Below, one piece after another: positions 17,671-54,841 of a DNA stretch of 64,000 nt. The stretch comes from a virus: IMG/VR virus record IMGVR_UViG_3300021077_000115, positions 46,064 to 110,063 of that record, one strand, 5' to 3'. Under the pieces are notes generated by a model. That model was given only the letters and a program-made list of their open reading frames with translations, searched no databases and was not told the origin of the DNA. Position numbers and translations under genes: made by a program. The first letter of the stretch is position 1. Every line of letters begins with the position of its first letter.

Positions 17671-17706
17671 GTTTCAACTCACGCTCCTTCTCAGGAGCGA
17701 TGTAAC
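17671..17706 (-). repeat. solitary (orphan) CRISPR repeat, 36/36 identical to the array repeat and in the same orientation
   Basis: The text is gtttcaactcacgctccttctcaggagcgatgtaac. No second repeat or degenerate copy lies within ±100 nt. It sits between the stop of 17706..18047 and the start of 17160..17666. Confidence 0.9.
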
Positions 17707-22835: not shown

Positions 22836-22961
22836 CTATCGGTTATCAGTTATCAGTCAGAAATCTGCAGTCGGCGGTCGGCAGTCGGCAGTCAGCTATC
22901 GGAGGTCGGCGGTCGGAGGTCGGAGGTCGGCGGTCGGCTATCAGCTATCGGCTATCGGTAG
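22836..22961. repeat. intergenic tandem array of ~18 degenerate 7-bp units (consensus TCGG[A/C]GG on plus strand)
   Basis: The tract ctatcgg ttatcag ... tcggcgg tcggcag tcggcag tcagcta tcggagg tcggcgg tcggagg tcggagg tcggcgg tcggcta tcagcta tcggcta tcggtag has 7-nt periodicity throughout, with one phase slip near 22857. It lies exactly between two minus-strand genes. Confidence 0.85.
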
Positions 22962-32940: not shown

Positions 32941-32955
32941 CTTTACTTGCTTTCT

Positions 32956-33897: not shown

Positions 33898-34003
33898 ATC
33901 ATTCCTCTGATAACAACAAATAAACCCTTACTTCACAATGCATAATTATTGATGTAGGGATTTCTTTAATTATTACCAGGGAATTTCTAGGAAAATGGCC
34001 GTA

Positions 34004-34342
34004 TTAGCTACTGCCATTCCTATTACCGAAATACAATTGGCCTATCATTCTGCCATCTCTTCTTGCGGCAGCGTTGATTGCCTCCCATTCTTCTTGACGA
34101 AGAAGGCTTTGTGGACTGATTTTCCAAACCGCCTGATCGGAAGTTAGCTCCCCAGACTTTGCCTTCTCTATAGTTGACCGTACCGATTCGGTAACACGGT
34201 CAACCACGCCCTGCTCAGCAAATATAATCAGTACGGCAATGTTCTTCAACCAAAGGTTCCAGAGAGTCTCGTTCTTGGAGTCCCATCCGGAAACTTTACA
34301 ATCACCCCACAGGTCTTCTGGAGTAGGAGGATTATGGGCCAA
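34004..34342 (-). CDS. hypothetical protein
   Basis: A 112-aa ORF. Confidence 0.4.
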   Translation of the reverse strand: MAHNPPTPEDLWGDCKVSGWDSKNETLWNLWLKNIAVLIIFAEQGVVDRVTESVRSTIEKAKSGELTSDQAVWKISPQSLLRQEEWEAINAAARRDGRMIGQLYFGNRNGSS

Positions 34343-34548
34343 ATTTATTCTGATCTACTGGAATCATATATTACCTGCAGCTACAAGAGCATGGACAGGC
34401 GCAAGGGTGTTTGCTGACCAAAGCCAAGCCAATGAACACCACTGCCAGTGCCACAACAATAGCAATTACAGGACAAGCTTCTTTGAGTATTTTCATAATG
34501 CCTCGGGGTTGGAGGGCTCGCTTTCGAGCCCTCCAATTACTTCTTGCT

Positions 34549-35481
34549 CTAGCTGGCCTTTGCCGTCTTCGCTCGGGTTCGCTTTGCCTTTGGCTCCTTA
34601 GCCACTGGCGCTGTCAACGTCAAAGGCTCTACAGCCTTAGTCACAACAGGTGCTGCAGCTGGCGCAGCTTCAATACCAATCTTAGCCATCTCCTCGGCGA
34701 TCTTTTCTTCCGACATGCCAATGGCACGCAGTGAAGCACGAAGAGCATCCGCCATACCGGTGTTCTTGACTGGCGCTGACACTTCAGTAATCGTGGCGCT
34801 CGGATTCTCAATCTTCACCTGCACCGCAGCGTTCAGCTTCTCGATGAACCTGTCAGAATATCTGGAAGAATCGAAGGTGGGCTTGGACAACGTATCCATG
34901 AGCACCTTGCCCATTGCCATCTCGACCGGAGAAATCTGTACGTTCGCACACTTGTTATCGAAGCCGCGAACCTCTGTGTCGTAGAACATCTGGTACATGA
35001 CGAGGCCGTGTTGATAAGCACGGATTGCCACAAGATGTTCCTTGCCACGTGCTACGTATGTTCCAACTGCCGCTCGATTATGAGCCTTGAGAAGTTCATA
35101 CAAGAACTTGTAACCCTTATCCATGCCCTTGTCAGGCGCGGTGTAGTACGTTTGCTCGACATGCAGAGGATCAATTTCGCTTGTCGGCACGAACTCGGCA
35201 ATGTCCAGCGAGTCTTTCTTCGCCGCTTGCATGTTCGCCACTTCTTCTTCCGTGAATATAACGTATTGGTCCTTGGCGTATTCGTAGCCCTTTACAGAGT
35301 CACTACGCAGAACCTCTGCTAGCGTAACCGAATCAACCAACTTCTGACTGAGTCGGTTCCCAGTTTTGGGATTGATCATGTTGAAGCTCACAGACTCGGC
35401 ACCCGCCGCCTTGTATAGCTTGATAGCAATTTGTGCCATTCCAAAACTAAGAACTACTCGTCCGACTGATCGTGCTGACAT
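34549..35481 (-). CDS. ku: Ku (NHEJ DNA-end-binding protein) homolog
   Basis: The N-terminus SVGRVVLSFGMAQIAIKLYKA matches the bacterial Ku pattern (isFGLV.iPVkLysA). The core LVAIRAYQHGLVMYQMFYDTEVR is present. A lysine/alanine-rich basic C-terminal tail is present. Confidence 0.8.
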   Translation of the reverse strand: MSARSVGRVVLSFGMAQIAIKLYKAAGAESVSFNMINPKTGNRLSQKLVDSVTLAEVLRSDSVKGYEYAKDQYVIFTEEEVANMQAAKKDSLDIAEFVPTSEIDPLHVEQTYYTAPDKGMDKGYKFLYELLKAHNRAAVGTYVARGKEHLVAIRAYQHGLVMYQMFYDTEVRGFDNKCANVQISPVEMAMGKVLMDTLSKPTFDSSRYSDRFIEKLNAAVQVKIENPSATITEVSAPVKNTGMADALRASLRAIGMSEEKIAEEMAKIGIEAAPAAAPVVTKAVEPLTLTAPVAKEPKAKRTRAKTAKAS

Positions 35482-37068: not shown

Positions 37069-37306
37069 TCAACCCACGCGCCAGTAGGTAGCCCTGGATG
37101 GTTGATAAATCTCGATTGGTAGCCGAGAATGCCAAGTAGAATTCAGGGCACCTATCACCAAGGTATGGCAGCGCGTTTTTCAATTGTTCTTCCATGGCTA
37201 GCAAATCGTTATCGGAGATATGATTCCCCATTCGAAGTGCTTTCCATGCATTGTTCAATGATCTCTCTTTGGGCTTACTCATGTGCCGGTTTCCAAATCT
37301 CTTCAA
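37058..37306 (-). CDS. hypothetical protein
   Basis: An 82-aa ORF. Confidence 0.4.
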   Translation of the reverse strand: MKRFGNRHMSKPKERSLNNAWKALRMGNHISDNDLLAMEEQLKNALPYLGDRCPEFYLAFSATNRDLSTIQGYLLARGLIGR

Positions 37307-40300
37307 ACCGTCCCTTGAGTTGTCGTCGATACCTCACCAGGATCCTTTCCAAAACCCTGTATGAAACCTCGTCTTCTTCTCGTAGGCACATTCCAATCCA
37401 TCGAGACATAAAGGCGTCCGGCTTATTGAACCCCATTTGGTCTCGTGTCTCAGCGCCATCGCATACGCTGATCATGTATTCCAATGCGTCCCGTAACATT
37501 GCCATGCGACCTGGCGTTAGCTCCGGTTCCGGGACGTTGTTGACCTTCGCCGATTCGCGAGCAAGCACTCCATGCAACCGTTCAAGCGCCAACTCTCGGT
37601 CAACCTCTTCGCCAGCTGCATTGATACGAGCCATCATCTCGTCATCGGTCTCTTCAATCACCGCAACCCCAGGTAGCCGAGGCGGTGGTGGGTTGAATTT
37701 TATGCTGGCCTCAAGCGCCTTGTACGCAAGAGCAATCTTACGAGCAAGTAGCTTTTGGATGTGTCGATCAAGTGGATGATTTGACCGCATCCTCATGATC
37801 AAAACGTGGCTGCCAGAAGCACCGATACGAACAAGACGATCCTCAGCTTGGATATTCCATGAAGGAGTCCAGTGCAAGTCAACGAACAGAGCATTCGTTG
37901 CCCGAGTCAACGTAAACCCTACGCCACCAGTCTTGATTGTTAGGGCTATTCCCTTCAACAATCCGTCTTGGAATTCCTTGACGAAGTTGCGTCTGGTTTC
38001 TGGGTCAGTGTCCCCAGTGATGATTCTCCAACCAGCACGATCCTGCAGTGCTTCGATTGGTTCCTTGTGAGCGCTGAACACTACCAGTGGCGTTCCTGAA
38101 TCTTCGTAGCTTTCTACCATCTCAAGCATCGCTGGGATGCGTGACCTGGCCAGCATTGCACGAATCTCCGAGAACTCCTTGAAGTCCGGAAGCTCTTCGA
38201 GATCAAGTTCCGCTTCGTAGTCGAAATCATCGTCGATTTTCTTGCCGGTTACTTTACCAACAAAGGTATTAAGTGTCTTGTTCAGCGTTCCGTCACAATC
38301 AACCTCGATGTCCTGGTAGACCTTGGGCGGTAGGTCTTTCAACACCTCAGTCTTCAACCTCCGTAACATGACCCGTTGCATTCGCTCGGGTACCTCGGGC
38401 ATCGGATCTCCGAATTCGTATCCTCCCCATCCATTCTTGTACCCATTGAACAACCTCAGGAAGTTGTCCCAGCTACCAAACACATTTATGTTGCCAGCTG
38501 ACAAGACGCCAAACAAATCCAGAGGGTTATTCATCAATGGCGTGCCAGATAGAGCCCAGACTCGCTTGCTGATTCTTGTGATTTGGCTAACCTTCTGTGA
38601 CCGTGCCGTCTTGTAGTTTTTGACGAGGTGAAATTCGTCTCCAATCACTGTCGTTTCACTCAGCGCTTGCTCTTGTGCCGGTGTTAGGTTGGCTACAAGA
38701 ATCGGCTTGCCCTTCTTCGATACCTTACCACTATCTTTCTTCGGCGAGAGATAGTTAGGAAGGATGTCGTAGTTGACAATCACAATCTCACCAGGCTCAG
38801 GGATCTTGAACGGTATCGCTTTGGTCTTCTTACCTTCAGCTAATGCCTTTTCTACCGTCTCTTCTTTGCCGCTGCAGATTGTAACTCGGTAACTCGGACG
38901 CCACATCTGAATTTCGTCGCGCCAATTGTACTTCAACGACGCCGGGCAAATTACCAACACCCTTTCGTTGTCGGGCAGCGCTACGATTGCCTGCACCGTG
39001 TTGTGCGTTAGAATATAGTCTCGTGTAACGTATAGATGATCCTTTGCTTCGACACGAATACAAACACAATCCTCCTGACCAGCTGGGAAGATATCTGTGA
39101 TAGCGTGTGTCGATGGGTATTTTGTAGGAGGAATGAACCGCTCTACCTTGCGCGGAATTCTGAACGGTACCATTCCACTAGGAAGTTTGATACGAATTCT
39201 AAAATCTGGCAGCCCAGCTTTCTTTTCTCCGTTATGTGTGAAGAGCGGAATCCGGCTTGACATCAATGCGATACCACCGAGGCTTCGCACCAAAGAACAA
39301 ACCTGACTTGCAAGAACAGGGGAAGTTGTATTGTATTCAATACACATTCCATCCTTAGAAATTGTCCCATCATTATCCAATAGGCCTTGTAGCAGGTTAA
39401 GTCTTTGACCTGCTGAGGCAAGCATGTACTCTTCTGGAACAAATCTATCTTGGCTCTGTAGCCCTTTCAGGCACAAGTTATCAAGTACTTGGGTAATCGG
39501 ATTGGTATCTTGATTTTCAGGACCTAGATACGAAAGACGGTATGTGCAATCGTCACTCTGTGATAGGTAAATTCCAACTGGAAGATACTCCTTGAATGCA
39601 GCTCGTTGTTCATCATCACCGGCATGAGTTATTGTAGTTGCACACAATCCGCCGTTTGCAATCAACGCACCCAATAAGTAGGGATGCATCGGAAGGTCTG
39701 TTTCATCAAACTCAACCGGCTGTACCATTGGAATGAAGAATTTATGATTTTCATTCCTATCTTTCAAACCCAATGCATTCAGATCCTTCAATGAATGCAC
39801 TCGAATTCTGCCTGGATTGCGAACACGATCATTTGGAGTTTGAACAGCCCAAAGATGATCTTCACAACAGCGGGTACGAGCATCATCAGAAAGGACGATC
39901 TCGAAGATATCTTTTACACCCTGGGGAAACACCCCATCAACTCTAGTTGGTCTTCCATTGGAACCAATTACAAAATCACCAACTTTCAAAGTCCCGATTG
40001 GAACCCATCCTTTTGGTGTGAGAACTGGTTCTGAAACAGGCTGCGCCTTGCCCAAACCCATGTCGTCGGCCAAGAAGAACCGTTCGTGCAACGCGAGGGC
40101 TTTGACACCCTCCGTCTGAAACCCGAACAACGTCTTGCCATTGACGCTAATCGCATTCGCACGAGCAACTGCTTCGCGACTCTCTTCAGTACCAGCTTCA
40201 ACCAACGCACGAAGCGATTCCGGAACTTCCAACTTGAGCTGATCGGCAATTTCAACCACTCGCGGAAGGTCGGCAGGCTTCATACTCACTTGCCAGTAGA

Positions 40301-40589
40301 CCTGATCCTTCGGAAGGTTCTCTGGATTGAAGCGCGCCCCCGGAAATGATCTAATCAGTGGAATTGCGTCTCTGTCAAATGGCATGTATACTTTGCCATC
40401 CTCGGTGAGTTTGCGCACCACATTCTTATCAGTAACACTTGAACTAATTTCAAGACCGAGATGGCGATGGCAAGCAGCAGAAGCACAGGCCGTAAACCAT
40501 CCGCTGCCATTGTTGTACGCAAACCCAGCACCAACCTTGACCAACATCCCACAACATTGGCATTTTTTGGAGTATTTATTAACAATCAT
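37275..40589 (-). CDS. SNF2/SWI2-family helicase (Rad5/RapA-like) interrupted by an intein in motif I
   Basis: The extein motif I is LADDMGLGK|TVQAIVAL once residues 212-560 are removed. Motif II is DEFHLVKNY. Motif III is LSGTPLMNNPLDLFGVL. Motifs IV-VI are VVFSAHKEP..., GGVGFTLTRATNALFVDLHWTPSWNIQAEDRLVRIG. An N-terminal CQCCG zinc motif is present. The start is taken at M31 (MIVNKYSKK, AGGAA 9 nt upstream). The track start at 40679 would overlap the HNH gene on the opposite strand. Confidence 0.85.
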   Translation of the reverse strand: MIVNKYSKKCQCCGMLVKVGAGFAYNNGSGWFTACASAACHRHLGLEISSSVTDKNVVRKLTEDGKVYMPFDRDAIPLIRSFPGARFNPENLPKDQVYWQVSMKPADLPRVVEIADQLKLEVPESLRALVEAGTEESREAVARANAISVNGKTLFGFQTEGVKALALHERFFLADDMGLGKAQPVSEPVLTPKGWVPIGTLKVGDFVIGSNGRPTRVDGVFPQGVKDIFEIVLSDDARTRCCEDHLWAVQTPNDRVRNPGRIRVHSLKDLNALGLKDRNENHKFFIPMVQPVEFDETDLPMHPYLLGALIANGGLCATTITHAGDDEQRAAFKEYLPVGIYLSQSDDCTYRLSYLGPENQDTNPITQVLDNLCLKGLQSQDRFVPEEYMLASAGQRLNLLQGLLDNDGTISKDGMCIEYNTTSPVLASQVCSLVRSLGGIALMSSRIPLFTHNGEKKAGLPDFRIRIKLPSGMVPFRIPRKVERFIPPTKYPSTHAITDIFPAGQEDCVCIRVEAKDHLYVTRDYILTHNTVQAIVALPDNERVLVICPASLKYNWRDEIQMWRPSYRVTICSGKEETVEKALAEGKKTKAIPFKIPEPGEIVIVNYDILPNYLSPKKDSGKVSKKGKPILVANLTPAQEQALSETTVIGDEFHLVKNYKTARSQKVSQITRISKRVWALSGTPLMNNPLDLFGVLSAGNINVFGSWDNFLRLFNGYKNGWGGYEFGDPMPEVPERMQRVMLRRLKTEVLKDLPPKVYQDIEVDCDGTLNKTLNTFVGKVTGKKIDDDFDYEAELDLEELPDFKEFSEIRAMLARSRIPAMLEMVESYEDSGTPLVVFSAHKEPIEALQDRAGWRIITGDTDPETRRNFVKEFQDGLLKGIALTIKTGGVGFTLTRATNALFVDLHWTPSWNIQAEDRLVRIGASGSHVLIMRMRSNHPLDRHIQKLLARKIALAYKALEASIKFNPPPPRLPGVAVIEETDDEMMARINAAGEEVDRELALERLHGVLARESAKVNNVPEPELTPGRMAMLRDALEYMISVCDGAETRDQMGFNKPDAFMSRWIGMCLREEDEVSYRVLERILVRYRRQLKGRFEEIWKPAHE
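39000..40046 (-). mobile_element. intein (349 aa) with double-LAGLIDADG homing endonuclease domain, inserted in the SNF2 P-loop; class-3-like (N-terminal Ala, W-C-T pattern, terminal HN, +1 Thr)
   Basis: Block A is AQPVSEPVLTPKGWVPIGTLKVGDFV. Block B is RTRCCEDHLW. The endonuclease motifs are YLLGALIANGG and LLQGLLDNDGTI. Blocks F and G are CVCIRVEAKDHLYV...ILTHN, followed by T. Removing this span restores a canonical GLGKTVQAI in the extein. Confidence 0.75.
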
Positions 40590-40636
40590 GATATTATTCC
40601 TAGTCGAGGCTTTGTTGTTAGCGCCATCTAATTCAG

Positions 40637-41242
40637 ATGAAGAAGACTTGCCCAAAATGTAACAGTGAAAAACTAACAAAGTTCTTCAGCAAGAATCATA
40701 AAGCACCAGACGGATTAGCTTATTACTGCAAGAAGTGCAGTTCTGATTGTGCAAAGGATTTTAGAAGTAAACCTCTTCCAAATATCAAAACAACAATTAA
40801 GAGGTTTGAATCTAAGTTTGAAAAGTCTGGCAGTAATGATTGCTGGTTGTGGAAGTCTTCAATTAATCAAAATGGGTATGGTGTCTTTGGGGTTGGCGGT
40901 AAAGTTCTGACAGCTTCGCGAGTGGCATATGAACTTTACATTGGCCAAATTCCAACAGATAAACTTGTACGTCACAAGTGTGACAACCCGCCATGTGTAA
41001 ATCCAAATCACCTTGAGCTTGGAACAAACCTTGATAACTCTGGAGATATGGTAAACAGAGAGCGGGTTGCGCGAGGAGAGTCTAGTGGATTATCTAAGAT
41101 TAGCGAGACTGATGTTAGAAATATCATCAGGTTAAGAAGTGAAGGGATAACTCAACAAGCAGTTGGAGATATGTTTGGTTTGTCTAGATCACAAATATCA
41201 AACATTGAAAGAGGGATTAGCTGGAATCAACAGGCCCAATAG
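40637..41242 (+). CDS. HNH homing endonuclease (HNH_3 type) with N-terminal zinc ribbon and C-terminal HTH
   Basis: An N-terminal CPKCNS...CKKCS ribbon is present. The HNH core is CWLWKSSINQNGYGVF...ASRVAYELYIGQIP.DKLVRHKCDNPPCVNPNHLELGT. The C-terminal HTH is ITQQAVGDMFGLSRSQISNIERG. It lies on the plus strand among minus-strand genes. Confidence 0.8.
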   Translation: MKKTCPKCNSEKLTKFFSKNHKAPDGLAYYCKKCSSDCAKDFRSKPLPNIKTTIKRFESKFEKSGSNDCWLWKSSINQNGYGVFGVGGKVLTASRVAYELYIGQIPTDKLVRHKCDNPPCVNPNHLELGTNLDNSGDMVNRERVARGESSGLSKISETDVRNIIRLRSEGITQQAVGDMFGLSRSQISNIERGISWNQQAQ

Positions 41243-43912: not shown

Positions 43913-44539
43913 TTACTTGGAACCCTTTTTGCCGGCCTTCTTGCCAGTCTTCTTCGTGGCCTTGGCTTTGGCAGCCTTCTTGGCAGCCCTTGCTTCGGCA
44001 GCAGCAACGGCTTCCTTCTTGACGTTCTGGCGCACATTGTAAACGTTGGCCGGAACAACTTTCTTCAGGCCGAGCGAGTGGCAATGATCAACAACTTCCG
44101 TGGCCTTGGCTTCGGGATTCTCATCATCGTAGTCACGAATGACCTGAGAGGCCGTACGCCCATCCTTCGTCAGTACGCGCTTGCCAGCTTTGCTGGGCTT
44201 CACTGCGGCGGTAGCCTTAGCTTTCTTCGCGCGACCGCTCGGGCCAATATCGCCGTCATCATCCTTCGCCTTGTTCTTGGAACCTGCTGGGCGTCCTGGA
44301 CCTCTCTTCACAGGCGTCTCGACCGTCTTGCTCTTTGACCCAGCAGGACGACCGGGGCCACGCTTCGTGGGCTGCTCGGTAGTATCAGTTGCGTCGGCGA
44401 CGACTGCGGCCGGTGCAGAAATAGTAGAGGACATTGCAGCCACGAATTTATTGAAGAAGAGACCTTCGAGAGCTTTGACGGTCTTGGGGTGAAGGGTCTC
44501 AAGTACTTCCGCTGCATTGATGTTTGTTATTGCGTTCAT
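43913..44539 (-). CDS. AT-hook / histone H1-like basic DNA-binding protein
   Basis: Two AT-hook motifs, KRGPGRPAGSK, are present. The C-terminus is Lys/Ala-rich (AKKAAKAKATKKTGKKAGKKGSK). It has its own consensus promoter and terminator. Confidence 0.6.
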   Translation of the reverse strand: MNAITNINAAEVLETLHPKTVKALEGLFFNKFVAAMSSTISAPAAVVADATDTTEQPTKRGPGRPAGSKSKTVETPVKRGPGRPAGSKNKAKDDDGDIGPSGRAKKAKATAAVKPSKAGKRVLTKDGRTASQVIRDYDDENPEAKATEVVDHCHSLGLKKVVPANVYNVRQNVKKEAVAAAEARAAKKAAKAKATKKTGKKAGKKGSK

Positions 44540-45600: not shown

Positions 45601-45660
45601 TACAAAACCTTATTTGGTAAAAGATAGTAGCTGTTAGAATCGTTATGTTGTGTAAATCCC

Positions 45661-46555
45661 ATCCTTGCTCCTTCTCAGGAGCGATGTAACCTCAGGAGCG
45701 ATGTAACGATGCCCATCATGCACAGGTTTCAACTCACGCTCCTTCTCAGGAGCGATGTAACCTTTCTTTGGTAACATTACTTAATTACACTCACACCCGT
45801 TTCAACTCACGCTCCTTCTCAGGAGCGATGTAACAGGGTCTTGTCGTTCTGAAGGTCGAGAGTGCCGATGTTTCAACTCACGCTCCTTCTCAGGAGCGAT
45901 GTAACCTGTAAGACGACAACCGACCTCCGACCTCAGACCTCCGTTTCAACTCACGCTCCTTCTCAGGAGCGATGTAACCAATCACGTAGCGAACTAGCCT
46001 TATTCTGTGGAATAGGTTTCAACTCACGCTCCTTCTCAGGAGCGATGTAACGACGATCAGCGCTCGCACCTGCGGTATCAAGGCGCAGTTTCAACTCACG
46101 CTCCTTCTCAGGAGCGATGTAACTTTACACCAAGTGGAAATCACTTCCCCGATTCTGTTTCAACTCACGCTCCTTCTCAGGAGCGATGTAACCTAGTTCG
46201 CATTGCCACGGAGTATTTAGTGGGTAATGGTTTCAACTCACGCTCCTTCTCAGGAGCGATGTAACCAATGGCATCTAAGAAACGCGGTCGTCCAAAGGGC
46301 TTGTTTCAACTCACGCTCCTTCTCAGGAGCGATGTAACTTGGTAAGAGTCATGGGGTCGGAAATCGTGGCTCCGTTTCAACTCACGCTCCTTCTCAGGAG
46401 CGATGTAACCGCCAGGCCCGTTGCAGTCTGGAGACTCTCCCGGCCCGTTTCAACTCACGCTCCTTCTCAGGAGCGATGTAACCCGTCAGGAGTCGTTATC
46501 CCTTCTCCGTCAATTCCAAGTTTCAACTCACGCTCCTTCTCAGGAGCGATGTAAC
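45661..46555 (-). CRISPR. CRISPR array with 12 identical 36-bp repeats and 11 spacers (33-37 nt), plus two truncated degenerate repeats at the leader-distal end; type I-C-like repeat transcribed on the minus strand
   Basis: The plus-strand repeat is GTTTCAACTCACGCTCCTTCTCAGGAGCGATGTAAC. It starts at 45726, 45799, 45870, 45943, 46016, 46088, 46157, 46230, 46303, 46374, 46447 and 46520. The reverse complement ends GTGAGTTGAAAC, and I-C repeats typically end ATTGAAAC. An internal palindrome GCTCC-ttctca-GGAGC is present. The partial repeats at 45661-45707 mark the old end. The leader lies next to cas7. Confidence 0.95.
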
Positions 46556-46779
46556 TCATTCGTCAATAACCTAACAATTTCAAAGACTTGAAGTTTGATT
46601 TGCGAGAGGGTGTCACAATAATGATGTGACTACCCAACACAGTAGTCGGCCATCAGTATTATCTATAACAATATCCACTACATATGCGCTGCGAGCGGCT
46701 ACTGGAATTTGTATACCATCAAGCCGCTCGCAGAAATAAATTATCAAAGAACCGGATGGCTAATTAGCCACACGTCAAT
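46556..46779 (-). promoter_or_regulatory. CRISPR leader region
   Basis: It is 224 bp, AT-rich, and sits between the cas7 stop and the first repeat. It contains an 11-bp inverted repeat, tgcgagcggct...agccgctcgca. Confidence 0.5.
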
Positions 46780-47616
46780 TCAGAATCCAGAAATCACTTC
46801 AGGCTTTAATCCAGTGAGCTCTGAAATATCTACCTCACCATTCGGCCTTGCCATCACAGATTGATGTACCTTGGCTGATGAGTATTGTCCAGCTTTACAG
46901 TTGTGCTCAAACCACACAACTTTCAATACCTCCATGCTGCCCTCGGGTCGCGACGATGAAGCGTCATTCTCAAACATTTTCGGCAGAATTTTCTTGATAA
47001 CTTCAGCATCCGTATCACTGAATCCTGTACGTTCTGCCAATTGAGGGTTCATACTGCCACGCATCACGTACACACCTTCACCTACCCGATGTTTCATTCC
47101 CATCGTATCCGAACCGCGCTTCTTCCCATCCCCATCCCCATTCACGCTCTTTGTAATTTGCGTGCTAGTAATTCTAATAGGTTCAACACTTACCGCAGAA
47201 TGAATCGATACAGGGCCACGAATACCTACCGATATCCCAGAGTCCTGGTCTTCGCCCTTCTTAACCTTCTTGGCGGCAAAGGCAAACAACTGTCCAAATG
47301 CACGAACATCGAACCAGGTTTTGCAAGACTCAGCAACCAGCTCGCTACTACCAAGCTTGCTTCCTAATGTCTTTTCCGCACGAGCCTTGAGGCTCTCTGC
47401 ATCATCTGTTTTACGATCATCAGACTGTACGAAGATCTTCTGACCACTCTCAAGCAATCGGTCTCGTAACTTACGCTTGAGACATACGTCAGTAACCTCA
47501 CCGAAGCCGTTGTAATCAGTGCGCGGACAATTTCCGTTAAGCGGGTCACCATTGGGATTGGCGTTGCGAACACGGAAGACTAGAATGAAATCGATTTTGC
47601 TGTTTAAAGTTTTCAT
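46780..47616 (-). CDS. cas7: Cas7 (Csd2), type I-C
   Basis: MKTLNSKIDFILVFRVRNANPNGDPLNGNCPRTDYNGFGEVTDVCLKRKLRDRL matches the Csd2/DevR signature (V.N.NPNGDPD.GN.PR.D...G.VTDVCLKRKIR). Confidence 0.85.
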   Translation of the reverse strand: MKTLNSKIDFILVFRVRNANPNGDPLNGNCPRTDYNGFGEVTDVCLKRKLRDRLLESGQKIFVQSDDRKTDDAESLKARAEKTLGSKLGSSELVAESCKTWFDVRAFGQLFAFAAKKVKKGEDQDSGISVGIRGPVSIHSAVSVEPIRITSTQITKSVNGDGDGKKRGSDTMGMKHRVGEGVYVMRGSMNPQLAERTGFSDTDAEVIKKILPKMFENDASSSRPEGSMEVLKVVWFEHNCKAGQYSSAKVHQSVMARPNGEVDISELTGLKPEVISGF

Positions 47617-47660
47617 ATCTGTAAATCTTTCTTCTGTAAATTGTCGCTAACTAAAAAAAC

Positions 47661-49553
47661 TTAATTCTTGACCGTTTTTGAAGGCTCATCCGCACTATTA
47701 CCTTCTCCTGACCCTTCTTGCTTTTCCCACAACACAGCACGTTGGCAGTAGTAGCCAAGTTGATATTCTGTTGAAAGCCGCAGATCACTAATAAAGTCAT
47801 CATGCTTAAATGATGTAATGACACTTTCGAGCAATTGTTCCATATTATAAAGGAACCCACCAGCCTTAGATGCCAGCTGAGCTTTGTATGGAACAAGTGC
47901 TAGTGAAATCGTCCTCCACGTTGACGATGGCCTATCCGCAAAACACTGAGTCAACCGCGCAGCATTTGTCTGACGTTGATCCTTTGGGTTTGGATTTGAA
48001 AGATACAGAGCAAAGCCCTCTATGCGCTCGGCAATTGCCAACAATCTCCCAAACAAATAGTCTCTGGATGTACGGTTCTCTTCGAGTGTCATCTCATATT
48101 TCCTTTGGTAAAAAGTACCACGATAAAGGGCGCATGCAATCCCTAAACATTTTTCAAACTCCCATTTTTCCAAACCAACTCGATTCGATACTCTGCGAGA
48201 TATTGACTCAACCAAATCTCGTGGAACAGTTACATCATCAATAATACATGGCAGCAATCTCTCAACAGTTGCCTTCTTGAGCTTGTCATCCAACCGACGG
48301 CCATACGCCGCCTCTGCAATATCTCTCGGCGCTGGAGCTCCAACGAATCGGTGCTCCTTACCAAAATTCTGCTTCCATGAATATTGCAGATGCCACTTCT
48401 CAAGCCGTTCTAGAAAGTCCGAGCCCTTCAAATCCCTATAGTAAGGTATTGCTAAACGCCCAGGAGTTGCGGAGTCAAGAACCATCACCACTACATTTTC
48501 ATTACCAGAAAGATTTGATTTATATCCGGCAATTGCCCTCGATAGCCGCTTAGCAAACGCTTGACCTACGTCGGTGGCCCTATCTGTTTCTTCCTCAATT
48601 CCAAAGATGGTCATCGTGTCATCGCATAGGCTCGGTATCACCTTTCCACTTACGGCCCAAGAGACGATTGCCTGGGTATCATTTCTGAATGACTGTCTGC
48701 CAATCAACCACCGAAGCGCATTGTGGGCCTTGTGAGTTGCCTCGAACCCAATCGTTATTGCTTCATTGGAGTTTGTGAATTTTCCACGAAACGTGTAATT
48801 TTTATCGTCATTAGACGATATTAATTTTGCATTATCTGCCGTGTGTCGAATTTTTTTAGGATGCTTCGTTGTGAGTGGAACTTCCTGTCCCGTTATCATG
48901 CATATCCCAAATATAGATTCCTGCTTCGAAACATACTCTGACCACGCATTTAGAAGGGTAGGATCTTCCCAAGTGCCTGAGGCTAAGTCATTTTCATGCT
49001 CAACTCTCCAACGTACGAAAGCATCCGATTGGTTACCGCTGATGATCGCCTTACAAATTTCAGGCGTGTTATCTTTTCCACCAACCCATTGCGCAGGTAG
49101 CTTTCCCTTACTGTCGGCAAATAATACCTTGGCCCCTATAAGGTCTGTAATTACCTGCATCTTTTTGACATACTTAAGGATAGCAATTAGCTTCGGATGC
49201 TTTGAGGTGTTGGTAAAGTTTACAAGCGCATCAAGATATGCGCTATGAAATTTTTCTGCGCCAGAAACCTTTTCAGAGAAATCTCCCGCCACATACTTCA
49301 GCTTATCACAAAGGGGGTGGGCGGTTGAATCGCAGGTTCTGCACGCTGAATCATCTGTGCAAGGAATTATGGTTGGCTGATCCCGCTTGGCAAGTACAGA
49401 AGCCCTTCGAAAGTTACCATTGCCATCGAGGACAATCTCTATTTGTGCCAGCTGGCTTGTATGGGAGATTGGATAAATATCTTCAGATTCTGGAACGTTC
49501 TGATTGTCCTTACAGCAATCATACGTCTCTATCAATCTATGCATCCAGCTCAT
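47661..49553 (-). CDS. cas8c: Cas8c (Csd1), type I-C large subunit
   Basis: Its 630-aa size and position between cas5c and cas7 fit. The N-terminal pattern MSWMHRLIETYD...IYPISHTSQLAQIEIVLDGNGNF resembles Csd1 N-termini. Confidence 0.75.
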   Translation of the reverse strand: MSWMHRLIETYDCCKDNQNVPESEDIYPISHTSQLAQIEIVLDGNGNFRRASVLAKRDQPTIIPCTDDSACRTCDSTAHPLCDKLKYVAGDFSEKVSGAEKFHSAYLDALVNFTNTSKHPKLIAILKYVKKMQVITDLIGAKVLFADSKGKLPAQWVGGKDNTPEICKAIISGNQSDAFVRWRVEHENDLASGTWEDPTLLNAWSEYVSKQESIFGICMITGQEVPLTTKHPKKIRHTADNAKLISSNDDKNYTFRGKFTNSNEAITIGFEATHKAHNALRWLIGRQSFRNDTQAIVSWAVSGKVIPSLCDDTMTIFGIEEETDRATDVGQAFAKRLSRAIAGYKSNLSGNENVVVMVLDSATPGRLAIPYYRDLKGSDFLERLEKWHLQYSWKQNFGKEHRFVGAPAPRDIAEAAYGRRLDDKLKKATVERLLPCIIDDVTVPRDLVESISRRVSNRVGLEKWEFEKCLGIACALYRGTFYQRKYEMTLEENRTSRDYLFGRLLAIAERIEGFALYLSNPNPKDQRQTNAARLTQCFADRPSSTWRTISLALVPYKAQLASKAGGFLYNMEQLLESVITSFKHDDFISDLRLSTEYQLGYYCQRAVLWEKQEGSGEGNSADEPSKTVKN

Positions 49554-50260
49554 AACAAACCAACTTCTGTGTCTACTGATTGTACGTTTGTGCCAAGACC
49601 AAACATTTTCGGAGCCATATCCCTCACAAACCTACGAATCTTGCATTTGTCAGGACGAGGGAAATTAATAACTCCATTAACCATTGTTGGTTGGTACATT
49701 CGACACTCCAACTTGTGCTCTCCGGTTTCCTCAGGATAGTCGAAGCCATGGAACATCAACCCGTAAGCCAGCTCAGCGCTATCGTCATAGTAACCTTTGC
49801 TAGCGCCAAACTCACACGGTTCTACATATCCCTGGCAATCTCTAGTTCCAAGAAAGATGTCTTGCCGGCCACCAAGTTCCAAACACCGCTTCACTATCGC
49901 AAAGTGCTTGCCATCAATACGATCTTCTTTCAAACCAGGCTGGTGCAGGTTCCATTCGAAGTGAGCTTGAACTTGGTACTCGACATTTGATAGAAACGTG
50001 TAAATGGATAGGTCGTTGCCACCTGAAAACTTAAGAGGTTTAACACCCTTCGTCTGGGTTGTGATGCGATTCATGATCCGCACCCGGTCTACAATCCATG
50101 TGAACGTTGGTTTGAAGTATATGGACTTAACGATGCCTTTCACTGCTTCGTATGTGGGTATTTGATAGGAGCATTTCTCACCACCCACCCTGGTCACCGG
50201 GTCTGTGAAGAGGGCATAGCGCCCCCAAACTCTAAAGCTGATCGCATTCTTCATATTCAT
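49550..50260 (-). CDS. cas5c: Cas5c (Cas5d), type I-C pre-crRNA endoribonuclease/Cascade subunit
   Basis: AISFRVWGRYALFTDPVTRVGGEKCSYQIPTYEAVKGIVKSIYFKPTFTWIVDRVRIMN matches the Cas5d N-terminal signature (YALF.DP......SY.VPTYSALKGI.ESIYWKP). Confidence 0.85.
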   Translation of the reverse strand: MNMKNAISFRVWGRYALFTDPVTRVGGEKCSYQIPTYEAVKGIVKSIYFKPTFTWIVDRVRIMNRITTQTKGVKPLKFSGGNDLSIYTFLSNVEYQVQAHFEWNLHQPGLKEDRIDGKHFAIVKRCLELGGRQDIFLGTRDCQGYVEPCEFGASKGYYDDSAELAYGLMFHGFDYPEETGEHKLECRMYQPTMVNGVINFPRPDKCKIRRFVRDMAPKMFGLGTNVQSVDTEVGLL

Positions 50261-50382
50261 TCCTTTCTAAAACGCTTCAACTCACGAGCCACCTGCGAAT
50301 GGCGCGAACTTTCAAGCCCATGATAATGCATGGGCTTGAAAAGTCAAAGTGTTTCTTTCTAAAACAAAGATTATTAGGCCGG
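50261..50382 (-). promoter_or_regulatory. cas3-cas5c intergenic region with a 10-bp perfect hairpin and a CRISPR-repeat-like fragment just upstream of the cas5c start
   Basis: The plus-strand hairpin is caagcccatg-ataatg-catgggcttg. Read on the minus strand, 20 nt before the cas5c ATG, the segment GCTCGTGAGTTGAAGCG shares 11 nt (CGTGAGTTGAA) with the repeat 3' end GAGCGTGAGTTGAAAC. Confidence 0.35.
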
Positions 50383-52860
50383 TCAATCAGACCAAGTAAC
50401 CCCGAAGTCGTTGTAATAGCCATCATCTAAGTAGTAAATTGATGAGCCTTCTTGGATAGGGTGAATGGCATTAAGATCCATTAATTTTTTGCAATCAGTA
50501 TCAAAAATATTAACTGTGAATTGCTGCGCTCTGCGAAGTAGTTTGAATTCAGTTTCCAAATTAGCCGAACGTAGTTCATTGATTATTTCAATACCATCTT
50601 TATAAGGAACGACTACTCCAGTGGTTCGCGAATCAATAGGGTTAAAGGCCTTGGCGGCAGTAGAAAACGACTGCCACATCATATTCTTATCAAGATCTCC
50701 GTATGTTTTATCATAGGAGACTACTGAGATTGCGTTCGTTGAAAGCAGTTGAAGCAATGAATCAGATCTGCCAATATCATTAGCTTGATTGGCAGTAACG
50801 TTGTACTCCATTTCGCCGCGTCGTTTGAAGAAATAACCTTCGTAAAAAGCATTCATGGCAGCCAATCCAATTATATCACCATCAAATTTCTGTGGGTCTG
50901 CTTGGAAGTCTGCCAAGATTCTTTCTGAAACCTCAATGCCTTTTTTGATATCAACCAAGCTGCTTATGTTTTCAATCTCTTTCGCTGGATTAGTAATGGA
51001 CACAATTCCCATTTCACGCTCACCATTGCGGTTACAACGACCAGCCGCCTGAGCAATAGAATCCAGCCCAGCTAAACACCGTATAACTGCGCCAAAATCA
51101 ACATCAACTCCGGCCTCAATAAGCTGAGTGCTAACACAAATTATATTCTCCTTGCGTTTCAAGTGCCCTCGTACCTTAGCTAATATCTCACGCCGATGGG
51201 TTGAGCACATATTAGTGCTAAGATGATACAATGGTAACTTCGTATCCTTGAGTGCCAGACACACCGCCTTGGCTGTCTTTTTTGTATTCACAATCACCAA
51301 GCAACTTCCAGCTTGCTCTGCTTTTTCCTGAGCGGAGCTGGCAATCTCTGCAGCTTGCCAACCTTCAGGCTTTCTACAATCAACTACCTTTACACGTTTC
51401 AGGTCATTGAATAAACGCTGAACGTCTGGAATAATTTCTGTAGCCTGCTTGATCGCACCCTTCTTTTGGTCAACCTTGCTAAGAAGAGGTTGTGTCGCTG
51501 TGCAAAGAACTACTGAGCAGCCACATTGCTCAACTAAGAAGTTGATTGCGTTGTTGAACATATGAATGCATTTTATGGGTAGCGTTTGGATCTCGTCAAA
51601 TATAATAACCGAATTCGCCAGCTGATGTAGTCTCCTAACATTGCGTGTTCCACTACCAAAAATAGCTTCAAGAAATTGCACATGTGTAGAAAAAACTACC
51701 GGTGCATCCCAGTTCTCTGTTAGGATTCTATCTTTCCAAATTCTACTCTTATCTTGCCACTTAGAAACCATCTCATCATCGTCATTCTTTTTCTCATTCA
51801 CCACATTACAATGGTGTTCAAGCACCACCTGTGTGTTACCCTCTGGTCTATTCTTAGGTTCTAAGATTTCCCTAACTACATCAGCATTCTGATCAATGAT
51901 TGAGGTAAATGATATAAAATTAAATACTCGTTTTAAATTATGTATTTTGGCGTGATGTAAACCAAACCTTAAGCTACCAAGTGTTTTGCTTCCTCCAGTA
52001 GGAACTGATAACGTAAAAATACCAGGTAGACGAACAGCGGCTTCGCGACAATTCCTAGATACGTTATTTCGAATTAAATCAATTTGGCGAGTTCCAAGAG
52101 CATATGAATTAACTTTCTTCTCAAGCCGCTCAATCAACACATCCCATGATACGTAATTACCATTCAAACGAAATTTTCCAAAATTTGGTTTTTCGAAGTC
52201 GGCGGTATCGGTTCTATCAGCATCAATCAAACCACTAAATAAATATCTCACCAACAACCCAACTTGGAATTTTGATACCATTATGCTGTTGCTGGAGTTG
52301 GTTGCAATATTTTTGATTACATCTATCAATCTATCTACAAACCCAGGCCTTCCAATAATTTCCAAACTCCGCCTAACTAATTCATATTCTGCATTAGAAA
52401 CCACCTCATCGAAGTTCACGTCCTTACTAGCACGGCGCGTAAATTTATCTTCAGCCGGATTTGGTGCCAAGCAGTCAATTAAACCAGAATGGTGAGAACA
52501 TACACAAAGAAAAAGAATCTGACCAACAAGCCTGCCGCATACACCTTGCTTCGACAATTCACGCCAGATAAATTGTGCCCCAGCTGTTGCATGATCAATC
52601 TTGCCTTTGTATTCAGAAACGTCTACAAACCCCGCATCTCCGGGTTTTAGTAATCCAACTCCTGATTTGATGTAGTTCTGAAATTTAGAGCTGTACTTAC
52701 CGAGATCGTGTAGTAATCCGATTAGCTCACCATGATCTGCCAGCCCTATCTTTTCTGCGCAAATTCTGGATATCTTAGCTACACCTTCTAGATGTTCTTG
52801 AACGGTTTGTGTGATGCCATCTTCTTCTCGTAAATGAGCTATATAAGTCATCTTACCCAC
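50383..52860 (-). CDS. cas3: Cas3 (HD nuclease + DExH helicase), type I signature protein
   Basis: The N-terminal HD domain is HLEGVAKISRICAEKIG.ADHGELIGLLHDLGKYS..FQ. Helicase motif I is VPTGGSKT. Motif II is IFDEIQT. The C-terminal helicase domain runs for 825 aa in total. Confidence 0.9.
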   Translation of the reverse strand: MGKMTYIAHLREEDGITQTVQEHLEGVAKISRICAEKIGLADHGELIGLLHDLGKYSSKFQNYIKSGVGLLKPGDAGFVDVSEYKGKIDHATAGAQFIWRELSKQGVCGRLVGQILFLCVCSHHSGLIDCLAPNPAEDKFTRRASKDVNFDEVVSNAEYELVRRSLEIIGRPGFVDRLIDVIKNIATNSSNSIMVSKFQVGLLVRYLFSGLIDADRTDTADFEKPNFGKFRLNGNYVSWDVLIERLEKKVNSYALGTRQIDLIRNNVSRNCREAAVRLPGIFTLSVPTGGSKTLGSLRFGLHHAKIHNLKRVFNFISFTSIIDQNADVVREILEPKNRPEGNTQVVLEHHCNVVNEKKNDDDEMVSKWQDKSRIWKDRILTENWDAPVVFSTHVQFLEAIFGSGTRNVRRLHQLANSVIIFDEIQTLPIKCIHMFNNAINFLVEQCGCSVVLCTATQPLLSKVDQKKGAIKQATEIIPDVQRLFNDLKRVKVVDCRKPEGWQAAEIASSAQEKAEQAGSCLVIVNTKKTAKAVCLALKDTKLPLYHLSTNMCSTHRREILAKVRGHLKRKENIICVSTQLIEAGVDVDFGAVIRCLAGLDSIAQAAGRCNRNGEREMGIVSITNPAKEIENISSLVDIKKGIEVSERILADFQADPQKFDGDIIGLAAMNAFYEGYFFKRRGEMEYNVTANQANDIGRSDSLLQLLSTNAISVVSYDKTYGDLDKNMMWQSFSTAAKAFNPIDSRTTGVVVPYKDGIEIINELRSANLETEFKLLRRAQQFTVNIFDTDCKKLMDLNAIHPIQEGSSIYYLDDGYYNDFGVTWSD

Positions 52861-53792: not shown

Positions 53793-54110
53793 TTATCGCA
53801 TTGGTTCCTGAATTTCAACGTATCCACGCTCAACGAATACAGAAGAATCACGCGGTACCTTGGCGAGCTCAACAATTTTACCAGAAAGTTTATTTATATT
53901 TTCTTCTAGCTTGTCAATTGTACGCTGCTTTGAGAGGCATGCTTGACATGTTGTTGGCCCAATAAATTGATAAGATTCCATTTCGCGTTCCATTTCAATA
54001 TGTCCAACGAAGTCCTTGGAAACGCTATCAATCTGCTCTTGGGTAAGTTGTACTCCAAATTCAGCGAGTAAATCTCCCAACGTATCGGATCTTACCTGCG
54101 CAATTGTCAT
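53793..54110 (-). CDS. hypothetical protein
   Basis: A 105-aa ORF. Confidence 0.4.
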   Translation of the reverse strand: MTIAQVRSDTLGDLLAEFGVQLTQEQIDSVSKDFVGHIEMEREMESYQFIGPTTCQACLSKQRTIDKLEENINKLSGKIVELAKVPRDSSVFVERGYVEIQEPMR

Positions 54111-54131
54111 ATCATTACCTTTACTAACAAC

Positions 54132-54437
54132 CTAATCGAATAAACTTATGACTTCTTCCCAGTCATTCTCTGAGAAATCTACGATGTATGGTGTCCAGTT
54201 TTTTGGAGACAGATCAAGATACCCACCCACAAATACGAAAGAGCACTCAGGATGGCCAAGTCTAAAGCTGTCAGCATAGATATAAACACCAGCTACCCAT
54301 GCCTTGCGCCTAACCTTCCTGCCCTTGAGCAACAGTTTCCAGGCCCAAGCAAATGATCCTTTTGATGGACGCATTGACCACACAACTGACCATATACAAA
54401 TACCAGTTGCAATTATATACAACACCAATCTTAACAT
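54132..54437 (-). CDS. small membrane protein
   Basis: An N-terminal TM segment, LVLYIIATGICIWSVVW, is present. The ORF is 101 aa. Confidence 0.4.
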   Translation of the reverse strand: MLRLVLYIIATGICIWSVVWSMRPSKGSFAWAWKLLLKGRKVRRKAWVAGVYIYADSFRLGHPECSFVFVGGYLDLSPKNWTPYIVDFSENDWEEVISLFD

Positions 54438-54841
54438 CAGAACAACTCCCTTAGTGCTTTGTAGAAGTCCGAAGCGTTGCCACCCTCAGGAATTCCAGCA
54501 GTGCCACCGTCATTTACTTCAACCACAATCCATTCGCCTTCCTCTTTCTCCGCAACATCAATAGCAAAGAAGTTACTTTTGACATCCGAAACCAGATCAA
54601 TGATAATCTTCTTTAGTGGTCTGTTTGCGAAGTTGTAGAATAAAGAATCCCAATATGGAGCCGAGTAAAAAATCTGACCCTTAAATACAAAGAACCGGTG
54701 TTCATTGAATAATGGTGTCTTGCTCTTGGGGTGCGATCCAATTTGCTTGAGCTTGATGAACTCTCGGAACACAAGACCGCCAGCCAGATCATCGCCCTGC
54801 CCATTGATAAAGTTCGTAATTACTCGACGTAGATTTCCCAT
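54437..54841 (-). CDS. hypothetical protein with ATP-grasp-like C-terminal block
   Basis: FFAIDVAEKEEGEWIVVEVNDGGTAGIPEGG resembles the C-terminal Mg/ATP-binding strand of ATP-grasp enzymes (D.A....G.W.VIEVN...G). The ORF is 134 aa. Confidence 0.35.
   Translation of the reverse strand: MGNLRRVITNFINGQGDDLAGGLVFREFIKLKQIGSHPKSKTPLFNEHRFFVFKGQIFYSAPYWDSLFYNFANRPLKKIIIDLVSDVKSNFFAIDVAEKEEGEWIVVEVNDGGTAGIPEGGNASDFYKALRELF

Follow-up and report, generated by a model that had tools for sequence, protein, structure and literature searches.

In a 64,000-nucleotide stretch of DNA from the IMG/VR virus record IMGVR_UViG_3300021077_000115 (positions 46,064 to 110,063 of that record; hereafter the window, numbered from its first letter), we found a CRISPR-Cas locus of type I-C, composed of cas3, cas5c, cas8c and cas7 followed by a leader and a repeat-spacer array, all read on the minus strand. 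Apart from Cas11c, which is predicted, every defining feature of type I-C that we tested was found except cas4-cas1-cas2, so the locus is best filed as a type I-C interference module rather than a complete I-C locus. The best overall explanation, which we consider a likely one, is that such a module is carried by a probable huge phage, with a possible regulatory layer resembling the CreR mini-CRISPRs.

A type I-C effector with intact catalytic motifs

The four cas genes abut. cas3 occupies 50383..52860 on the minus strand as an 825-amino-acid (aa) open reading frame (ORF) starting from GTG; the ATG at 52851 (822 aa) is the likelier start and is the choice of gene callers on other contigs. It is followed on the same strand by cas5c (49550..50260; 236 aa, likely start at 50254) for the pre-CRISPR RNA (pre-crRNA) endonuclease, by cas8c (Csd1; 47661..49553; 630 aa) for the large subunit, and by cas7c (Csd2; 46780..47616; 278 aa) for the backbone subunit. 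A first-pass annotation, made from the sequence alone, had read the four genes as Cas3, Cas5c, Cas8c and Cas7, and profile searches with Pfam, NCBIfam and PADLOC agreed with this assignment.

Cas3 is an HD nuclease fused to a superfamily 2 (SF2) helicase in one chain. It matched the PADLOC model Cas3c (1e-209), the Pfam families Cas3-like_C_2 and Cas3_HD, and the NCBIfam model TIGR01596 cas3_HD (7.5e-28; 97.8 bits against a cut-off of 43), while TIGR01587 cas3_core (5.7e-29) scored 101.3 bits, just under its cut-off of 102.45. Residues 5-649 aligned with two solved I-C Cas3 proteins, PDB 8zns (1.8e-81) and 8g9u_P from Neisseria lactamica (2e-78). In these alignments the HD motifs LLHDLGK and HHSGL, the Walker A motif PTGGSKT, and DEIQ, TAT and QAAGRCNR are all unbroken.

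Cas5c matched TIGR01876 (4.9e-74; 249 bits against a cut-off of 85) and aligned end to end with Bacillus halodurans Cas5d (PDB 4F3M; 2.1e-89), compared with which it conserves the tyrosine of SIYFKPT (SIYxKPT) and the Lys-His of GKH. These residues would be the catalytic triad reported by Nam et al. 2012. Cas8c matched the equivalog TIGR01863 (4.4e-115; 385 bits against a cut-off of 219), PF09709 (2.6e-120; 403 bits) and PADLOC Cas8c (2.3e-161), and Cas7c matched TIGR02589 (5e-93; 312 bits against a cut-off of 182) and PF05107 (5.1e-73). There was no Cas6 model among the listed PADLOC or Pfam matches. Within cas8c, an in-frame Met488 (ATG at 48092) is preceded by AAGGA and aligns with the corresponding methionine of the solved N. 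lactamica Cas8 chain, which fits the internally translated Cas11c known for type I-C; a Cas11c of 143 aa is probably made from this site. These results show the products of the four genes to be Cas3, Cas5c, Cas8c and Cas7c, whose catalytic motifs are intact, and the module appears to be a working one.

Array, leader and direction of transcription

A terminator-like hairpin stands just 3' of cas7, and a 224-bp leader (46556..46779, minus strand) separates this gene from the first repeat. The array (45655..46555, minus strand) consists of 12 identical 36-nucleotide (nt) repeats, 11 spacers, a chimeric oldest spacer and a decayed terminal repeat. The repeat, GTTTCAACTCACGCTCCTTCTCAGGAGCGATGTAAC, has 12 exact copies at 45726-46555 compared to 0 expected in shuffled sequences, and the 11 regular spacers measure 33-37 nt. 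The leader, the repeats and the spacers had been delineated in the first-pass annotation, and we recovered each of them at the same positions.

Read on the minus strand, the repeat is GTTACATCGCTCCTGAGAAGGAGCGTGAGTTGAAAC, with the pattern GTTACATCG...GTGAGTTGAAAC. It forms a 7-bp hairpin (-13.2 kcal/mol, z = -3.3), and it has an I-C-type 3' end (...GTTGAAAC), whose last 12 nt are those of a bacterial I-C array adjoining cas5-8-7-4-1-2 in Testudinibacter. Since the reverse complement of the repeat ends in GTGAGTTGAAAC and carries the hairpin, the CRISPR RNA (crRNA) is read in the direction of the cas genes, as had been proposed at first pass, and the leader stands at the 5' end of the array. 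These results show that the array, the leader and the repeat hairpin have the canonical I-C form and orientation.

The decay of the array is polarised towards its leader-distal end, which had also been seen before. There the 13th repeat (45655-45690) carries 8 mismatches, all in the 12 nt of the would-be 5' handle, and the oldest (12th) 'spacer' (45691-45725; 35 nt) is a chimera in which 18 unique nt are joined to 17 nt duplicated from the 5' part of the repeat, apparently as a recombination scar. Spacers 4, 7 and 11 had been named as the newest. Given the polarity of spacer acquisition, only the leader-proximal spacer is the newest, which holds for number 11 (46483-46519) and not for numbers 4 and 7, which lie mid-array.

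Search for adaptation genes

An identical Cas8c sits on a 391,957-bp contig in the JGI collection. Around the locus we read ~80 kb of this ~392-kb genome, namely the window and contigs that extend it leftwards by ~10 kb and rightwards by ~6 kb. Cas4, Cas1 and Cas2 queries were taken from the I-C locus of Testudinibacter sp. (cas5-8-7-4-1-2 plus array), which was reached via the repeat. In tblastn searches they gave no match in the 64-kb window at E <= 0.01, and the same queries matched ten of ten IMG/VR I-C loci at 35-51% identity. Profile hidden Markov models (HMMs) of Cas1, Cas2 and Cas4, made from nine sequences per protein and run with filters off against all six-frame ORFs of at least 30 aa, reached a best E of 0.18 over the window, its flanks and three relatives (described below). 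Pfam searches of the extending contigs revealed no Cas families. These results show that there is no Cas1, Cas2 or Cas4 within ~80 kb. The first-pass annotation had seen none in the 64 kb and had named cas4, cas1 and cas2 genes immediately outside the window as the sign of a complete system; none is present in the ~16 kb of flanks.

The Cas7 relatives found in IMG/VR (50-61% identity) were considered as members of the same kind of system and rejected, because ten of their ten loci carry cas4, cas1 and cas2.

Relatives carrying the same cassette

The closest relatives of Cas8c are four metagenomic proteins at 63-70% identity, followed by a large set at ~53%, in which a source is named for only a few proteins, all of them bacterial (Nitrospira, Bryobacteraceae, Pseudomonadota). 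We compared the DNA of three of these four relatives: L030 (a 41-kb ENA contig), L031 (16.7 kb, JGI) and L032 (8.3 kb, Logan). Each of these phage-like contigs carries cas3-cas5c-cas8c-cas7, with 67-71% identity to the window for Cas3, 73-74% for Cas5c, 63-66% for Cas8c and 75% for Cas7. The array was read in L030 and L031, and the L032 contig ends shortly after cas7. There was no cas1, cas2 or cas4 within ~4-10 kb on either side of the cassette, depending on the contig, and outside the cas genes the neighbours are unrelated (topoisomerase, PIF1-like helicase, RlaP, PP2C, ClpX zinc finger).

The L030 repeat, GTTATATCGCTCCTGAAAAGGAGCGTGAGTTGAAAC, has 36 nt and 2 differences from the repeat of the window, and the L031 repeat, GTTACATCGTCCCTAATAGGGGACGTGTGTTGAAAC, has 36 nt and 8 differences, among which are compensatory changes affecting the two sides of the stem. 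The leaders of the window (46556-46779), L030 (12745-12952) and L031 (8332-8537) have several blocks in common, namely an inverted repeat TGCGAGCG...CGCTCGCA, the motif TCGCAAA, and AAGTnnTTGAAAT, which lies ~25 nt ahead of the first repeat; their conservation suggests promoter or integration signals under selection. The three arrays have no spacer in common, and all of their spacers are entirely different, so spacers must have turned over since the elements diverged, despite the lack of an integrase encoded nearby.

Strict and relaxed pattern scans for the 36-nt repeat gave nothing in IMG/VR, and pattern scans of the JGI metagenome collection gave nothing either. No relative of Cas3 was present in IMG/VR, where only the more distant Cas7 relatives mentioned above occur. 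The first-pass annotation had suggested looking for a host I-C locus with the same 36-nt repeat, and this search returned none: among genome contigs, the repeat scan found only the Testudinibacter array, whose 31-32-nt repeat has the same handle and stem. We regard that array as a lead on the ancestry of the repeat, not as pointing to a host. By these comparisons the cassette belongs to a small separate clade with 36-nt repeats, found neither in IMG/VR nor among GenBank phages.

Spacers and their near-matches

No full spacer match was found within the window. A near-match to spacer S9 lies at 22908..22944 on the plus strand (30/37, without a TTC protospacer-adjacent motif (PAM)), in a tract of tandem heptamer repeats. 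In L030, spacer 6 (the oldest regular one, 13351-13386) matches a gene of the same contig just upstream of cas3 (6705-6740) at 32 of 36 positions, next to a canonical TTC PAM; of its four mismatches, three are at seed positions 1, 4 and 5. The orthologous gene of L032 (2000-2035) matches this spacer similarly (32/36). From the sequences, both S9 and L030 spacer 6 look like spacers taken from close relatives, with the carrier's own copy disarmed by differences in the seed or the PAM, and the position of the S9 match suggests the equivalent region of a related genome as its source. The two near-self matches lend indirect support to the idea that systems of this kind serve against competing related phages, a use described for huge phages (PMC7162821).

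The tract matched by S9 (22870-22944) comprises about ten GTCGGCG-like heptamers in a gap of ~790 nt free of long minus-strand ORFs. It may represent an iteron or an origin-like region at which relatives target each other.

The reverse complement of spacer S4 (46266-46302) reads ATG GCA TCT AAG AAA CGC GGT CGT CCA AAG GGC and translates as MASKKRGRPKG; its protospacer would then lie over the beginning of a gene encoding an AT-hook-like protein. Similar GRP motifs occur in a window ORF at 43913-44539, yet this ORF does not match S4. The G+C fraction of the spacers ranges from 0.35 to 0.73, with several at 0.59 or above, and is often above the 45% of the element. One match of the array to a Streptomyces plasmid (39 nt, 87%, E = 0.02) was treated as chance.

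A degenerate repeat upstream of cas5c

The gap between cas3 and cas5c measures 122 nt. A promoter scan of it revealed a single strong promoter, the internal sigma-70-like site TTGACT-16-TATCAT (50347-50320, minus strand; 10/12 matches). Directly upstream of cas5c, a few nt past the expected transcription start site, lies a degenerate copy of the repeat, which we call psiR (GTTCGCGCCATTCGCAGGTGGCTCGTGAGTTGAAGC; 50274..50309, minus strand). Over its whole length psiR is identical to the repeat at 22 of 36 positions, and the identity rises to 12/13 in the 3'-terminal 13 nt that hold the handle and is 10/11 in the 11-nt handle itself. In the 64 kb these 13 nt are the sole match with at most one mismatch outside the true repeats (0.06 expected), and the number of psiR-like matches expected by chance in the 122-nt gap in the sense orientation is ~6e-5. 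The psiR hairpin abuts the 11-nt handle and differs from that of the repeat in stem sequence; psiR folds no better than shuffled sequence (z = -0.24).

The segment that follows psiR, the psi-spacer (50238..50273, minus strand; GTTTTAGAAAGGAATGAATATGAAG...), covers the 5' untranslated region (UTR) of cas5c, the Shine-Dalgarno sequence and the first codons. Its start, GTTTTAGAAAGGAA, recurs on the same strand as GTTTTAGAAAGAAA at 50365-50352, where a PAM-like TTT (50368-50366) precedes it and where it ends 5 nt before the -35 element; this site is the candidate target of a crRNA-like RNA (crlRNA). Between the psi-spacer and the target, positions 1-11 and 13-14 are identical, and the sole mismatch is at position 12. 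In type I effectors, position 12 of the guide is flipped out and not base-paired. A psi-spacer guide would have an exact match of 11 nt, or one of 14 nt if the flipped-out position is ignored. TTT is the second-best type I-C PAM and is functional (PMC5602111).

Solitary repeat units (SRUs) of type I-C upstream of cas5c, the position that psiR has here, have been validated by experiment, and in Neisseria they are cut to leave an 11-nt handle and repress the adjacent promoter ~20-fold (bioRxiv 10.1101/2024.12.27.630466). Judged by its sequence and placement, the pair of psiR and psi-spacer looks like a CreR/crlRNA-type autorepressor of cas5c-cas8c-cas7. The only relative with a comparable gap between cas3 and cas5 is P0002 (157 nt), a protein-level record.

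In the relatives, one or two oddly spaced degenerate repeats close the arrays (9344-9530 in L031 and 13387-13520 in L030). The last degenerate repeat of L031 runs straight into the strong TTGACA-17-TACAAT promoter of a downstream gene, and the 'spacer' of this last unit resembles the preceding one at 11/16. Such array ends may be crlRNA-like units as well.

A solitary perfect repeat away from the array

A single perfect copy of the repeat (36/36) is located at 17671..17706 on the minus strand in crRNA sense, 28 kb from the array and 29 kb from the cas genes. This SRU and the repeat-like element at 50274-50309 both go beyond the first-pass annotation. The gap between two ORFan genes is taken up by this SRU, which directly follows a small ORFan and reaches the stop codon of the ORFan upstream of it; a promoter-like TTGAAA-16-GATAAT overlaps it. 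At up to 13 mismatches, no second repeat was found near it or anywhere else outside the array. An assembly artefact was considered and rejected, because an independent JGI contig (L015, 3077-3112) spans the same junction; four Logan contigs, which are k-mer assemblies, break inside the SRU.

The ORFs flanking the SRU gave no Pfam match above the curated cut-off (a weak zf-HIT match on one of them) and no PDB match; their only PHROG match is to a family of unknown function, and the adjoining ORFan has no relatives in IMG/VR. A search of ~85 kb found no convincing target for an SRU-derived guide. The best candidate, an 8-nt seed with a TTC PAM at 15466, was judged too weak. Possible roles of the SRU are a Cas5c processing site, a crlRNA, a decoy like the RNA anti-CRISPRs (Racrs), or a recombination relic.

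Gene content of the carrier

The window contains 98 short ORFs, almost all on the minus strand and mostly ORFans, at 45% G+C. Pfam searches identified Macro, Ku, ATP-dependent ligase, Metallophos, FtsK/SpoIIIE, radical SAM and pyrimidine-dimer glycosylase domains, together with HNH endonucleases, an SNF2 helicase, Phage_ProQ_C_like, a eukaryote-like PARP and a Tad2-like domain. Most of the remaining proteins had no match in Pfam, PHROGs or PADLOC. No tRNA genes, Rfam families, rRNA or housekeeping genes were found in the window, and megablast of the locus and of window positions 1-25000 against GenBank phages gave no match.

The SNF2 helicase (37275-40679; 1134 aa) has an insertion of ~350 aa that splits its motor domain right after the GLGK P-loop and ends in ...THN|T. 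One tblastn match of this protein overlaps a feature annotated as a DOD-type homing endonuclease, and the insertion is a probable intein. The best tblastn matches of the protein are to an uncultured 484-kb phage and to 350-kb Brevundimonas jumbo phages, at ~30% identity. The 392-kb contig, the density of ORFans, the HNH endonucleases, the probable intein, the Tad2-like gene and these SNF2 matches point to a huge phage as the carrier, which we hold to be likely though not proven. The phage setting read at first pass is likely on the same features, and it is unproven in that no structural gene was seen in the ~80 kb read.

At 18906-21937, a 488-aa PARP with WGR, regulatory and catalytic domains adjoins an HNH endonuclease of 526 aa. 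Both genes are found together again, at 62-74% identity, on a 209-kb (74%) and a 54-kb IMG/VR contig, and the pair appears to be a mobile cassette, because these contigs share nothing else with the window. For the same reason we rejected the PARP-carrying contigs as relatives of this genome.

Upstream of cas3, by 1.3-2 kb, a protein with a Tad2-like (anti-Thoeris) domain and an R2K ATP-grasp protein are encoded at 53793-54841, the Tad2-like gene at 1.3 kb; with these neighbours, the CRISPR-Cas cassette may sit in a counter-defence neighbourhood. Genes for Ku (34549-35481), an ATP-dependent DNA ligase (30419-31186) and a Metallophos phosphoesterase (31302-32189) are close together within 30419-35481 and look like a repair set of the non-homologous end joining (NHEJ) kind, as in some large phages. 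One of the 98 ORFs matched PADLOC SspH at 3e-40 in a pooled scan; it lies outside the 18 proteins that were scanned singly. The flank beyond the start of the window (contig L025, ~10 kb) encodes a ClpX-type zinc-finger protein, a PP2C phosphatase, a protein kinase and an NAD synthase, which fit a large genome rich in auxiliary genes. The flanks of the cassette in L031 likewise encode a ClpX zinc-finger protein and a PP2C phosphatase.

Discussion

According to the explanation we favour, an interference module on a probable huge phage, the array would be transcribed on the minus strand and Cas5c, by homology with type I-C, would cut each repeat at the 3' base of its hairpin, releasing crRNAs in which a 33-37-nt guide stands between an 11-nt 5' handle (UGAGUUGAAAC) and a 25-nt 3' hairpin handle. 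Cascade would assemble from Cas5c, Cas7, Cas8c and internally translated Cas11c, bind protospacers flanked by TTC (less well by TTT), and recruit the HD-helicase Cas3 to shred the DNA. The likeliest targets may, tentatively, be competing related phages, and like the first-pass annotation we infer that the system is used offensively. New spacers would come from Cas1-Cas2-Cas4 acting in trans, from the host or from elsewhere in the genome; the supply by a host I-C adaptation module, as first proposed, is plausible. In addition, a crRNA-like RNA from the 5' leader of the cas5c-cas8c-cas7 mRNA would load Cascade and repress its own promoter in the manner of CreR. The broader idea that programmed gene regulation, besides DNA destruction, is a task of the element's own Cascade is a tentative one, which we think rather improbable. 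If it is true, autorepression would buffer Cas levels and allow a rebound when the anti-CRISPR of a rival inactivates Cascade, and the Cas5c cut of the SRU would yield either a processed mRNA end or another guide, one for cleavage-free silencing of a phage or host promoter.

Several results weigh against parts of this explanation. The target search that the first-pass annotation had called for came back empty: there was no match for the spacers in GenBank phages (blastn of the array, E <= 10), in plasmids, or in two IMG/VR pattern scans, which used S1 and S4 patterns tolerant at every sixth base. The coding strand of the leader showed no sigma-70-like promoter. The CreR-like element was seen in one genome, and in L030-L032 cas3 and cas5 overlap, so these relatives lack it; psiR shares only the 22 of 36 positions with the repeat, and its PAM is TTT rather than TTC. 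Capsid, portal and terminase genes were not seen in ~80 kb. The adaptation genes could also lie in the remaining ~310 kb of the genome, and the system would then be complete and merely split, with cas4-cas1-cas2 or an unrelated adaptation module elsewhere. This would agree with the ~80 of 392 kb that were read, with acquisition since divergence, as indicated by the lack of common spacers in the clade, and with leader motifs conserved as expected if an integrase recognises them. We nevertheless find a split system quite improbable: three independent relatives also have no adaptation genes in the ~4-10 kb read on either side, the leader and array occupy the slot after cas7 where canonical I-C has these genes, and nearly all huge-phage CRISPR systems lack Cas1, Cas2 and Cas4 (PMC7162821). 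The lack of virion and packaging genes in the ~80 kb would fit a megaplasmid, a large extrachromosomal element of another kind or a bacterial genomic island as the carrier, whose system would defend the element or the cell. Plasmids and chromosomes, too, can have FtsK/SpoIIIE-like, Ku, ligase and SNF2 genes, and it was in ENA, JGI and Logan metagenome assemblies that the close Cas relatives (L030-L032, P0002) were found, with neither the repeat family nor a Cas3 relative in IMG/VR. Such a carrier is unlikely, however, in view of the 98 short co-oriented genes, mostly without a family match and without any tRNA, rRNA or housekeeping gene among them, the homing HNH endonucleases, the probable intein, the Tad2-like anti-Thoeris domain and Phage_ProQ_C_like, the PARP-HNH cassette 74% identical to one on a 209-kb IMG/VR viral contig, and best SNF2 matches in phages of 350-484 kb.

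The two other alternatives concern what the module and its extra repeats do. The main use could be directed at the host, to cut or silence host chromosomal genes or defence loci, or with the SRU and psiR RNAs as Racr/Cracr-like anti-CRISPRs against a host I-C system that has an identical repeat. Huge-phage spacers that target host genes are documented (PMC7162821), and solitary repeats of phages act as Racrs, the validated I-C case directly following an acr gene (PMC10651486), much as the SRU here directly follows a small ORFan; the spacer G+C content, often above that of the element, and the Testudinibacter I-C array, which shares the 3' 24 nt of the repeat except the loop, point the same way. 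We doubt that this is the main use, because no spacer matches any bacterial sequence searched and no host was identified, an SRU identical to the element's own repeat would sequester its own Cas5c and Cas7 too, and the two informative near-matches point to related mobile genomes. A stronger contender, and a real possibility although short of probable, is that psiR and the SRU are inert debris of past array recombination with no regulatory role. The oldest spacer is itself a scar with 17 nt of repeat, psiR does not fold better than shuffled sequence, the SRU guide has no target in ~85 kb, and neither element was seen in the three relatives, where 8-22 kb were read per cassette and an SRU 28 kb away would escape. 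Debris should decay like the terminal repeat, whereas the SRU is perfect at 36/36. Likewise, psiR retains exactly what Cas5c needs, a hairpin abutting a 10/11 handle, at the low chance expectation of ~6e-5, and the psi-spacer has its 11-nt exact match (14 nt without position 12) with a functional PAM beside the -35 element.

Compared with known systems, the locus shares the gene order cas3-cas5c-cas8c-cas7 with bacterial type I-C (Dvulg; B. halodurans, Desulfovibrio vulgaris, N. lactamica, Legionella pneumophila), as well as the lack of Cas6, the processing nuclease Cas5c, the Cas11 nested in cas8c (predicted here), the repeat hairpin and the ...TTGAAAC 3' end, and spacers of 33-37 nt as in L. 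pneumophila. It differs in that cas7 is followed by the leader and array and not by cas4-cas1-cas2. The 36-nt repeat also contrasts with the 31-32 nt of the Testudinibacter I-C repeat, and the closest bacterial Cas8c is only ~53% identical. Vibrio phage ICP1 reportedly carries a type I-F system with cas1 and a cas2-3 fusion, acquires spacers and targets the PLE island of its host. Both systems belong to class 1 and have a Cas3 nuclease, and that of ICP1 is phage-borne and offensive; the present one, unlike it, is of type I-C and has no adaptation genes in the ~80 kb read.

Huge phages are known to carry CRISPR-Cas without an adaptation module (Al-Shayeb et al. 2020, Nature 578:425; PMC7162821). 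The locus resembles those systems in its very large phage-like genome, its compact array, the lack of Cas1, Cas2 and Cas4 near the effectors, and the proposed role in phage-phage or phage-host conflict, and its array has 13 repeats compared to a median of six in huge phages (PMC7162821). The I-C variant described in huge phages is Cas3-less: an unidentified helicase replaces Cas3, and active-site residues of Cas5 are altered (PMC7162821). Here, in contrast, we found a canonical HD-helicase Cas3 and a Cas5c with conserved Tyr and Lys-His.

Like the CreR/crlRNA mini-CRISPRs, psiR is a single degenerate repeat upstream of cas5c with a conserved 11-nt handle after a hairpin (bioRxiv 10.1101/2023.03.10.532045; 10.1101/2024.12.27.630466), and its guide has limited PAM-proximal complementarity to a PAM-flanked site abutting the -35 element of a promoter. 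In the published I-C crlRNA cases, the carrier is bacterial, the PAM is TTC, and the genes under the regulated promoter are defence genes that have been inserted between cas3 and cas5c. Here there is no insertion, the promoter would be that of cas5c-cas8c-cas7 and of the crlRNA itself, the PAM is TTT and the carrier is phage-like. The SRU resembles a Racr (Camara-Wilpert et al. 2023; PMC10651486) in being a lone full-length intergenic repeat after a small gene, overlapping a promoter-like site and lying more than 100 bp from any partial repeat. Racr SRUs are described as free of cas association and as mimics of the host repeat (PMC10651486), whereas the SRU here is the repeat of the cas locus of the same genome.

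Adaptation-less phage CRISPR-Cas has been known since 2020, and the existence of such a locus is not surprising. What this one adds is a canonical I-C effector with a bona fide Cas3, in a small, previously unsampled clade. The compact cas3-5-8-7 cassette could serve as a self-contained I-C tool for editing and deletion. With a 36-nt repeat and leader motifs in common and different spacers, the clade makes it testable which Cas1-Cas2-Cas4 recognises them, and the two near-self matches predict close relatives as targets. If the CreR-like element and the SRU are functional, the virus would run a crRNA-like regulatory circuit of its own, that is, a virus-encoded CRISPR-Cas with its own crlRNA, compared to the described viral crlRNAs that hijack host Cas proteins.

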